From Candidatus Obscuribacterales bacterium (GTDB taxonomy: Bacteria > Cyanobacteriota > Vampirovibrionia > Obscuribacterales > Obscuribacteraceae), in assembly GCA_965228855.1 (NCBI GenBank), contig CBDDIJ010000003.1:3136001-3200000 (forward strand): 64,000 bases of DNA, written 5' to 3'. Below are positions 1,554 to 3,117 of the stretch, piece by piece; position 1 is the stretch's first letter, and every line of letters begins with the position of its first letter. The translations under genes were made by a program, and so were the position numbers. A model generated the notes under the pieces. The model had not been told where the DNA came from, ran no database searches, and saw only the letters and a list, made by a program, of their open reading frames with translations.

Positions 1554-2126
1554 ATGACTACAGAAGCCCAAGCGAGCAATTACAGAGCCGAAGAGTATCT
1601 TCGAGATGGGCGTCCCGTAACTATTCGCGCCATCCACGGTGAAGATAAACCGTTGTGGAAAGACATCTGGGAGCACATGAGCCCAACGTCTGTTTACTAT
1701 CGATTCTTCACGCCGAAAAAAGCAATCTCAGAACAAGAAGTCGCATATTTCACAGAACTCGACTTTATAACACACGTCGGTCTGATTGCTCTGGTGCATA
1801 ACCCATACATGCCAAACGAGGATCCCGCTGCCGCAGCGCGGTATCACGTATCAGACAAACAACAGGAAAGCGCCGAAATCGCATTCGGAGTAGAGGACAT
1901 TTATCACGGTCTCGGTTTAGGAACGCTTCTTCTCAAGCATCTTGCCATAATCGCGAGACAGTCAGGCATCAAAGAATTCAAAGCTTATGTTCTCGCTGAA
2001 AATTCAAAGATGTTGGAGGTATTCGAGAATTGCGGTTTGCCAATGTCTAAATCTCTGGCGGATTTCACAATGTGGGAAGTCACTCTTGATCTGAGTCAAC
2101 CGAGCGAATCCAAAAGCTCAACCTAG
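1554..2126 (+). CDS. GNAT family N-acetyltransferase (Pat-type stand-alone GNAT)
   Basis: 'LRDGRPVTIRAI', 'SVYYRFF', 'AEIAFGVEDIYHGLGLGTLLL' (acetyl-CoA motif A), 'VLAENSKMLEVF'. Confidence 0.88.
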   Translation: MTTEAQASNYRAEEYLRDGRPVTIRAIHGEDKPLWKDIWEHMSPTSVYYRFFTPKKAISEQEVAYFTELDFITHVGLIALVHNPYMPNEDPAAAARYHVSDKQQESAEIAFGVEDIYHGLGLGTLLLKHLAIIARQSGIKEFKAYVLAENSKMLEVFENCGLPMSKSLADFTMWEVTLDLSQPSESKSST

Positions 2127-2944
2127 GCAGAGTGCCTACTTGCAAACGGGTCGCGCCGCGCACGGAGCTTCGCTGCCAGCGCGTCTTCACGCGCCTGTAA
2201 TTCTTTTTGCCGTATCGTGAAATCATCTGCCGATTCACCGCTTCTTCCATTGTTTTTGTCTCCACTACCTGAGGAGTCCCGGCCACCACAGCCGCCAGGT
2301 CCTCAACCACCACCGGCGCTTCGCGCCATCGACATCTCGGGTCTGTCATGCACCACGTCCGAACGATGCTCCGCGCGTCGCTGCATTTCGCTTCGCAAAT
2401 CACCAGCCTCAGGCTTCGGAGCCTCAGACGTTTCGGATTTGTCACCATCGGCGGTGCCTGCCCCAGCATCACCGCGATTCATATCAACAGCATCTGCCTT
2501 ACAAGCTTTTGAATCGGATCTCGGAACACCGGCATCGGTATCACCGGCGTTGGTACCAGCCGCACTGGTCTCAGCAGCATTGGTCTCAGCAGTACTGGTA
2601 TCACCGAAACTGTTAACACCTCTGAGCGTGTCACCGGGCTTGGTATCACTGGAGCTGGTGTCAACGAGACTGGTATCACCAGTCCCATGAGCTCCAAGAC
2701 CACTGGTGGGCGAGCTACCATACAATTGATCGGTGCTCTGCAAACCTGCATTCAGGGACTCTTGCAGGTCATTCGAACTCTTCGAGGAATTGTCAGAGCT
2801 CGATGAAGAACCAGAGAGCGACGCAGCTTCGCGCATGTAACTCGAACCCAAGTCGCTGTATACACTCTGCATCGAGTTAACATCGCTTGTATTTGAAGGC
2901 GCGGCAACATTGTCCGACGCCTGTTCTGGCTGGAAGTTCGTCAT
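2123..2944 (-). CDS. Low-complexity hypothetical protein; 213 aa to TGA at 2303-2305, or 273 aa if the in-frame UGA is read through (candidate selenoprotein)
   Basis: ATG at 2944. The frame continues past TGA as GPGGCGGRDSSGSGDKNNGRSGESADDFTIRQKELQAREDALAAKLRARRDPFASRHSA to TAG at 2123-2125, which overlaps the convergent GNAT stop (CTAG). Confidence 0.6.
2270..2305 (-). promoter_or_regulatory. Candidate SECIS-like hairpin starting at the in-frame UGA
   Basis: mRNA UGAGGA-CCUGGC-GGCUGUGGUG-GCCGGG-AC-UCCUCA. UGAGGA pairs with UCCUCA, CCUGGC pairs with GCCGGG, and the apex is G/U-rich. Confidence 0.35.
2525..2690 (-). repeat. Coding 15-nt / pentapeptide repeat (xxGDT/xxAET)
   Basis: GTGDT SLVDT SSSDT KPGDT LRGVN SFGDT STAET NAAET SAAGT NAGDT; recurring 'tggtatcacc'-like DNA at 15-nt period. 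Confidence 0.7.
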
Positions 2945-3117
2945 ACTCTTCGGTTCAAATACTAAAGGGGCGTTTGGATATTATGATTTTGAACTGTGAC
3001 CTTTTGGTACCTAAAATTAGGAAATTAAGTGTCACCTACGAGGAGCAGTCTTTGTTGATGTAGCCACTTTCTTCCAATACTTGCGCCAGCTGCCGCAGAA
3101 CACCATCCACTGCGCGA

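Follow-up and report, generated by a model that had tools for sequence, protein, structure and literature searches.

The locus and its host genome

The window analyzed here is a stretch of 64,000 nucleotides from a Candidatus Obscuribacterales assembly (GCA_965228855.1; hereafter G000), a genome of 8.2 Mb that is 95% complete and 5.8% contaminated. On the minus strand, at 2123..2944, lies a predicted selenoprotein gene, delineated from its open reading frame and its orthologues, which would encode 273 amino acids, or 213 if an internal UGA terminates translation. As originally predicted, the frame opens with an ATG at 2944 and runs for 213 codons to a TGA at 2303..2305 (codon 214, likely selenocysteine), beyond which 59 codons stay open; the residues after the UGA are GPGGCGG...RARRDPFASRHSA, followed by a TAG at 2123-2125. 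Conserved in the alignment are an N-terminal stretch with LY[GS]S at its end (residues 60-77; 2714..2767, minus strand) and the motif ARSAGGG-U-GP[GR]GCG (residues 207-220; 2285..2326, minus strand), which is defined by invariant columns in the genus and contains the codon for Cys219 (2288-2290, minus strand). Converging from the plus strand is a GNAT acetyltransferase gene (Pfam PF00583; 1554..2126), a neighbor that we place outside the system. The TAG does overlap the GNAT stop in G000. However, the claim that the extension fills the gap between the two genes exactly holds only for G000 and one close relative; the gap is ~30 and ~90 nt in two other relatives, and the gene lies elsewhere in one more. 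In four genomes the gene adjoins those of an epimerase and the GNAT protein; its neighbors encode an exporter pair in G002 and a hydrolase and a glycosyltransferase in G021, the one carrier from another genus; the GNAT gene is adjacent in neither of the latter two.

The TGA is not an assembly error; contigs from all four sequencing runs, which came from four studies, cover the codon, and none lists a change there. The open frame behind it had been taken as a sign of coding, but on its own it does not serve as one, as at least 59 codons are also open behind 297 of 1800 G000 genes that end in TGA. Since such frames are common in this genome, the case rests on conservation. The dicodon score of the extension is -2.2 in G000, and the downstream frame holds no start codon in the stretch. 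Just 5′ of the UGA, at 2315-2327 on the minus strand, is an inverted repeat, GGCGC-GNA-GCGCC, that occurs in all genus members and is absent from G021; it may merely reflect codon use.

G000 encodes the machinery for selenocysteine (Sec) insertion, with selA, selB, selD and tRNA-Sec(UCA) all scoring over cut-off. A tRNA-Sec is present in all five other carriers of the gene, and selB scored over cut-off in four of them (G007, G021, G002, and G006), with a partial, sub-cut-off match only in G005. Across the order Obscuribacterales, at least 71 of 107 genomes have selB, at a cut-off that is too strict for this genus. The G000 selD is of the Cys form (L010:680-2598, minus strand), and the protein encoded behind it has what we take to be SirA/YedF-like and DsrE-like motifs. 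The sel genes and the target gene sit in parts of the assembly with 50-51% GC, away from the first 1.2 Mb of contig C2. A higher GC content (53-59%, against 50-51% in the rest) was observed in C2:1-1200000, C1, C4, and C6, which could possibly represent contamination or a mis-join.

Five other G000 genes with an in-frame TGA served as controls: MsrA (C2:2345996), Rdx/SelW-like (C2:1482372), ArsC-like (C3:2656332), TlpA-like (C5:1078754), and a CU-motif protein (C3:1338742). The first four were named from their catalytic motifs; with four selenoprotein genes of known type, the Sec system of G000 has clients. All five have a hairpin with a G in its loop 17-26 nt past the UGA, and the selenoprotein MsrA is paired with a Cys paralogue. 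A genome-wide screen of G000 for Sec genes by coding score returned mostly noise, and a screen for Cys paralogues recovered MsrA as its only control. We also considered, and rejected, a β-carbonic anhydrase gene (L146, C5:1258618), with a TGA at its HxxC zinc ligand, as a new selenoprotein or as a control for short SECIS spacing. A gene in G007 that is 97% identical has no stop there, and the TGA of L146 is therefore likely to be a strain-specific break.

Might the UGA instead be read through without Sec, by a near-cognate tRNA-Trp or because TGA is reassigned to Gly or Trp? The position of the codon within a run of glycines would suit such a reading. However, TGA is an ordinary stop in G000 (889 of 3028 long genes), and tRNA-Sec is the sole tRNA with a UCA anticodon among the 74 called. 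Reassigned codes (tables 4 and 25) were rejected on the same counts, and we regard non-Sec readthrough as very improbable compared with decoding as selenocysteine. Among the tRNA genes of G000, 21 are called in an array at C3:724518-727973 and five more at C3:1529761-1530653, odd anticodons included.

Conservation of the gene on both sides of the UGA

The gene was found in 6 of the 107 genomes of the order, namely G000, four of its seven same-genus relatives, and G021. It was not found, with the queries used, in G001, G003, and G004 (87-95% complete, all three with selB), nor in a sample of 400 additional genomes of the phylum. All six carriers keep the TGA within SAGGG-U-GP[GR]GCG, and none has Gly or Cys in its place. 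The final stop alternates between TAG and TAA within the genus; the in-frame UGA is constant and never TAA or TAG. Three divergent genus members share only 29-41% identity with the G000 protein overall, and the middle of the protein varies freely in length (187-273 amino acids), yet ARSAGGG-U-GP-x-GCG is invariant and the helix at the end is kept, as is an R-[DN]-PF motif at the C-terminal end of the extension.

The sequence after the UGA, the conservation of which was a key prediction, is indeed conserved as protein and is under purifying selection. Its dN/dS is 0.18-0.38 in the six between-species pairs that are unsaturated (six further pairs are saturated at silent sites, and three within-species pairs have too few changes), and the corresponding values before the UGA are 0.36-0.47 (five pairs). 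Variable columns after the UGA number 35, 25, and 51 of 56 at the first, second, and third codon positions. The sense frame past the UGA is open in all six carriers, with the +1 frame broken in three of the six and the +2 frame in all.

These results bear on the possibility that the UGA is a true stop, that the protein ends in a GGG of the kind for which ubiquitin and Pup offer a comparison, and that the downstream conservation has another cause. All nine database proteins that we found (P0002-P0010) do end at ...GGG, i.e., at the UGA, although gene callers would give the same result, and the candidate SECIS element is weak in G000 (see below). On the other hand, a true stop sits poorly with a downstream frame that is open in six of six genomes, is under selection of the protein type and offers no separate start codon in the stretch. 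Furthermore, the UGA is never swapped for TAA or TAG, and an earlier UGA in G021 would cut the protein ahead of the GGG motif. We therefore judge termination at the UGA to be improbable. If the UGA is read as Sec, each of the nine database entries is a truncated version of the protein.

A second concern is that the conserved codons belong to an antisense open reading frame (2217-2690, plus strand), with which the gene shares third codon positions. That frame is open in G000 and reads PPQPPGPQPPPALRA in several relatives; moreover, invariance of the TGA is weak evidence by itself, since, counted by eye, three of the motif's ten four-fold sites do not vary either. Nevertheless, a stop interrupts the antisense frame opposite the helix in three of the six genomes (G005, G002, and G021), the sense frame is open in all six, and it is the minus-strand gene to which the conserved ATG and upstream region belong. 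An antisense origin of the conservation thus appears extremely remote, and a Sec codon within a longer minus-strand protein accounts better for these observations.

The homologue in G021 (L090:1294-2025, minus strand) is a predicted triple selenoprotein with a Cys at its end. Its match to the motif has an E value of 2.6e-9, of which the significant part spans 22 columns only; SAGGG-U-GP-x-GCG is present here too, and the region upstream of the gene aligns with those of the first genus. Three in-frame TGAs lie in a G-U-G context, one as CxxU behind the LYAS block and two as UxxxxC, these being the shared site and a C-terminal SG-U-GRGGC, with the first UGA 75 codons ahead of the conserved motif. 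The three are followed by hairpins of -12.7, -13.0, and -10.0 kcal/mol with G-leading loops 22-23 nt past the UGA, and a hairpin of -9 kcal/mol or lower follows no more than 34 of 644 ordinary TGA stops. We read a fourth TGA, which has no such hairpin, as the stop. G021 is a single sequence, and its metagenome match is 100% identical. Judged from its sequence, this three-site gene is the strongest single argument for Sec.

Searches for more distant relatives gave little beyond these genes. A relaxed motif pattern matched 32 times in the 107 genomes, and the 30 matches inspected yielded only the seven known sites as plausible genes; the reversed control pattern matched about equally often. Three matches of a tighter pattern with a Cys codon were rejected as unrelated frames or proteins. 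Of 19 pattern matches in metagenomes, three (L065, L068, and L081) belong to this gene family and the others are chance frames or unrelated proteins. Profiles were built for both ends of the protein; the N-terminal one found no paralogue in G000, and the C-terminal one had no match among 1.84 billion representatives, where the low complexity of the query and the truncation of the entries limit sensitivity. A Cys homologue of the protein was not found in the database and profile searches.

Hairpins downstream of the UGA

The bSECIS consensus in PMC13188914 has a loop of 3-9 nt with a G in its first two positions, located 16-37 nt from the UGA, and a free energy of -7.5 kcal/mol or lower; a canonical SECIS is given for 87.4% of BSepDB entries. 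We scored candidates with a simplified model of our own based on this consensus, which also asks for at least 4 bp. The original prediction had proposed a hairpin that starts at the UGA itself (2270..2305, minus strand). It folds as claimed, with an energy of -22.1 kcal/mol, but it is not a conserved hairpin. Its z-score is -3.4 on 40 nt and only -1.2 to -2.2 on four other folding windows, and across four species 71% of its pairs can form, with no compensatory changes and with the register not maintained. Its loop lies about 12-13 nt past the UGA, short of the published 16-37 nt, and the UGA itself is paired within its lower stem, which a ribosome has to melt in order to decode the codon. An alternative register (2279..2292, minus strand) gives a proximal hairpin with its loop 15 nt past the UGA that is good in three relatives and poor in G000.

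A distal hairpin (2260..2276, minus strand), with an AGGUA loop 32 nt past the UGA, is the better SECIS candidate. Its GGU loop is invariant, 32-36 nt past the UGA and in register in all four species, 87.5% of its pairs form across the four species with one compensatory pair, and its geometry fits the simplified bSECIS model in G000 and all relatives tested. Energies of the hairpins are -7.1 kcal/mol in G002 and G006, -9.2 in G005, and -10 to -13 in G021, compared with -6.8 for the TlpA-like control, which itself falls short of -7.5. In G000 the distal hairpin reaches -3.7 to -4.8 kcal/mol alone and -9.7 together with the proximal hairpin, and a value of -4.8 is equaled by 21-31% of ordinary TGA stops (133 and 201 of 644). 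With the 9 nt after the UGA blocked, all seven copies of the shared site pass the simplified model, as opposed to 47 of 819 ordinary stops; extending the block to 11 nt makes the three copies of the G000 type fail. No hairpin beat column shuffles in a covariation test (105-500 of 500), for which there were four distinct sequences only. Since the distal hairpin is weak in G000, its 32-nt spacing lies outside the 17-26 nt range of the five G000 controls, and the shuffles were not beaten, we consider a SECIS in G000 to be plausible, and no more than that. The two tandem hairpins would provide a clean test of the spacing that is read by the SelB of this lineage.

The protein, its probable promoter, and its possible function

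The protein before the UGA is acidic and rich in Ser, Ala, Gly, and Asp, and its composition lacks the hydrophobic stretch of a membrane segment. It has no family match in Pfam or NCBIfam, and a search of the PDB by sequence gave nothing significant. AlphaFold2, run with a five-sequence alignment, returned a mean pLDDT of 51 and a pTM of 0.18, and the sole confident element of the model is a C-terminal helix (residues 237-264; 2153..2236, minus strand; block pLDDT 87-89). The helix is encoded wholly past the UGA, and the rest of the protein is predicted to be disordered.

Upstream of the ATG, a conserved region (2957..3011, minus strand) keeps the same spacing in all four species and aligns with that of G021. 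It contains the box GGTAC-N5-GGTCAC (2996-3011), a CATAAT (2980-2985), and a C/T-rich leader motif; GGTAC-N5-[GC][GT][AT]CAC with CATAAT 26 nt further on is conserved in four of four species. This region is likely to be the gene's own promoter. A scan for sigma-70 promoters and terminators found nothing on the strand of the gene. We searched G000 with a box pattern that was refined after the first matches had been seen, leaving out C1, C4, C6, and the first 1.2 Mb of C2. Ten of the 32 matches were intergenic, upstream of a gene, and on its strand, compared with 0 of 25 and 1 of 17 for patterns with altered spacers. The shared box may possibly mark a regulon or a promoter for an alternative sigma factor. 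It was rejected as a sigma-54 promoter, as an RpoN domain was not found in G000, and as a LexA box, as it is absent upstream of lexA and SOS genes are not among the matches. GG[TA]AC-N5-[GC][GT]TCAC precedes nine other G000 genes (C3:87836, 1382649, 3237653, and 3743961; C5:166126, 647556, 1171931, 1327713, and 1562974), most of which encode lineage-specific proteins with long acidic N-termini; three have Pfam domains, of a CGAC thioredoxin (C3:1382732), an esterase, and a histidine kinase.

What was found, namely Sec machinery in the genome, TGA rather than Gly or Cys in every orthologue found, agreement among contigs from other runs, and conservation after the UGA, supports the candidate selenoprotein proposed originally. 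We are highly confident, on these genomic grounds, that the UGA is decoded as selenocysteine. Our best overall explanation, to which we assign a probability of roughly 0.5, is that the conserved UGA is read as Sec214 of a disordered 273-residue protein in which Sec214 and Cys219 form a reversible Se-S redox pair. The host SelB and tRNA-Sec would decode the UGA within the invariant Gly-rich motif, with SelB bound to a downstream hairpin that has a GGU loop, most probably the distal hairpin. Insertion is probably inefficient, and short and long forms would coexist; given its weak distal hairpin, G000 would also produce a 213-amino-acid form with GGG as its C terminus. The exposed selenolate, on its flexible tether, could reduce peroxides or disulfides, bond to Cys219 through Se-S, and be regenerated by a thioredoxin, whilst the C-terminal helix may dock the protein to a partner or to itself.

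The redox role takes a little over half of the confidence that we place in Sec decoding. The hints in its favor are the U/C pair and the upstream box that is common to the CGAC thioredoxin, with the caveat that the U-x4-C of this protein differs from the usual redox spacing, UxxC. Among eukaryotic selenoproteins, K is grouped with S as a disordered type. Selenoprotein S is disordered, has its Sec and a Cys to pair with it in a stretch rich in Gly, and acts as a reductase in vitro (PMC10298544). The present protein resembles it in the predicted disorder around Sec, the Gly-rich stretch, and the Cys partner. In contrast, a sequence match to selenoprotein S was not found and no membrane segment is evident; the Sec lies inside the chain, ahead of a helix, and the candidate SECIS is of the bacterial type. 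The likeness is an analogy, not membership. It is this analogy, together with the CxxU that G021 adds, that leads us to favor an Se-S redox pair.

The main rival to a redox role is metal binding, in which the U-G-x-x-G-C modules of the selenoprotein would bind As(III), Hg, or Cu(I) as a metallothionein-like buffer. The modules are foldless, Gly-rich, and repeated, and a Cys form, SAGGG-C-GPSGCG, ends an otherwise unrelated protein of an ArsR operon (L079), whose gene has that of an arsenite methyltransferase on one side and that of an ArsG-like permease on the other. The L079 protein (L079:2482-3168, minus strand) belongs to no NCBIfam family, ends in SAGGGCGPSGCGPAGCK, and is encoded in an operon with ArsR, ArsM, an ArsG-like protein, and a P-type ATPase. 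The Cys-rich Gly tails of metal-resistance proteins such as L079 thus share SAGGG-[C/U]-GP-x-GCG with our protein, but the tail of L079 has Cys, is C-terminal, and sits on an unrelated protein, with the likeness confined to the motif. It is also a single look-alike among 19 pattern matches, most of them chance frames; metal-resistance genes lie beside none of the carrier loci examined, and members of the first genus have just one U and one nearby C. We accordingly consider a metal buffer to be unlikely and retain the redox pair as our preferred role.

A further possibility is that the protein is the precursor of a modified peptide, with Sec and Cys converted to seleno- or thiooxazoles or cross-linked by an enzyme acting in trans. 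Its G-U-G resembles the SGUG of the selenobacteriocin in Table 1 of PMC13188914, the third G021 site being SG-U-G; each carrier has 2-5 MNIO (DUF692) genes, and the G002 gene lies upstream of an HlyB/HlyD-like exporter. The selenobacteriocin SbtA (TIGR04081) and its radical SAM partner SbtM (TIGR04082) likewise involve a Gly-flanked Sec in an unstructured context, with more than one Sec in one member. However, TIGR04081 was matched, and TIGR04082 scored over cut-off, in none of five genomes, and instead of a short precursor beside its enzyme we find a protein of 240-273 amino acids with a conserved helix. No modifying enzyme, MNIO included, lies beside any carrier locus examined, and three of the four G000 MNIO genes adjoin an obvious Cys-rich precursor of their own and the fourth a plausible one (by eye). 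The clusters and their candidate precursors are at C5:55417-56826 (EGSCK repeats), C2:1432842-1434911 (CKGKGGC repeats), C5:1041145-1043219 (a membrane protein with a Gly/Cys tail), and C2:1703683-1705195 (a protein ending in CGMG). The modified-peptide idea has thus lost ground, and we give it a small chance, with a redox selenoprotein as the preferred reading.

The gene shares with the bacterial SelB/bSECIS selenoproteins the in-frame UGA, a 3′ G-loop hairpin, the selABCD system, and a Sec near a Cys. Yet, as the original prediction surmised, its motif and architecture have no match among the 119 families of Table 1 of PMC13188914, and it lacks a Pfam or NCBIfam match, a folded domain, and a detected Cys homologue. 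Among the freely accessible papers covered by our searches, we found none linking Obscuribacter or Obscuribacterales to a selenoprotein or selenocysteine. The gene very likely represents a genuine selenoprotein family of unusual construction that is missing from the catalogues, in which the decoding is known and the client is new. There is perhaps an even chance that the family lacks both a fold and a Cys version, is built from portable G-U-G-x-x-G-C modules (one in the first genus and three in the sister genus), and is expressed from a promoter that is specific to the lineage and common to a thioredoxin gene.

Every known selenoprotein is reported to have Cys homologues (PMC12013277), current catalogues rest on Sec/Cys pairs in folded domains, and it is stated that deep-Sep may miss selenoproteins that have no Cys homologue. 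The gene described here encodes a predicted selenoprotein for which no Cys homologue was found. If true, it would be an exception to that rule and would represent a class that is invisible to searches for Sec/Cys pairs. The motif is short enough to be synthesized, which makes the choice between redox and metal binding directly testable. More broadly, the non-photosynthetic relatives of the cyanobacteria may carry selenoproteins of their own making.
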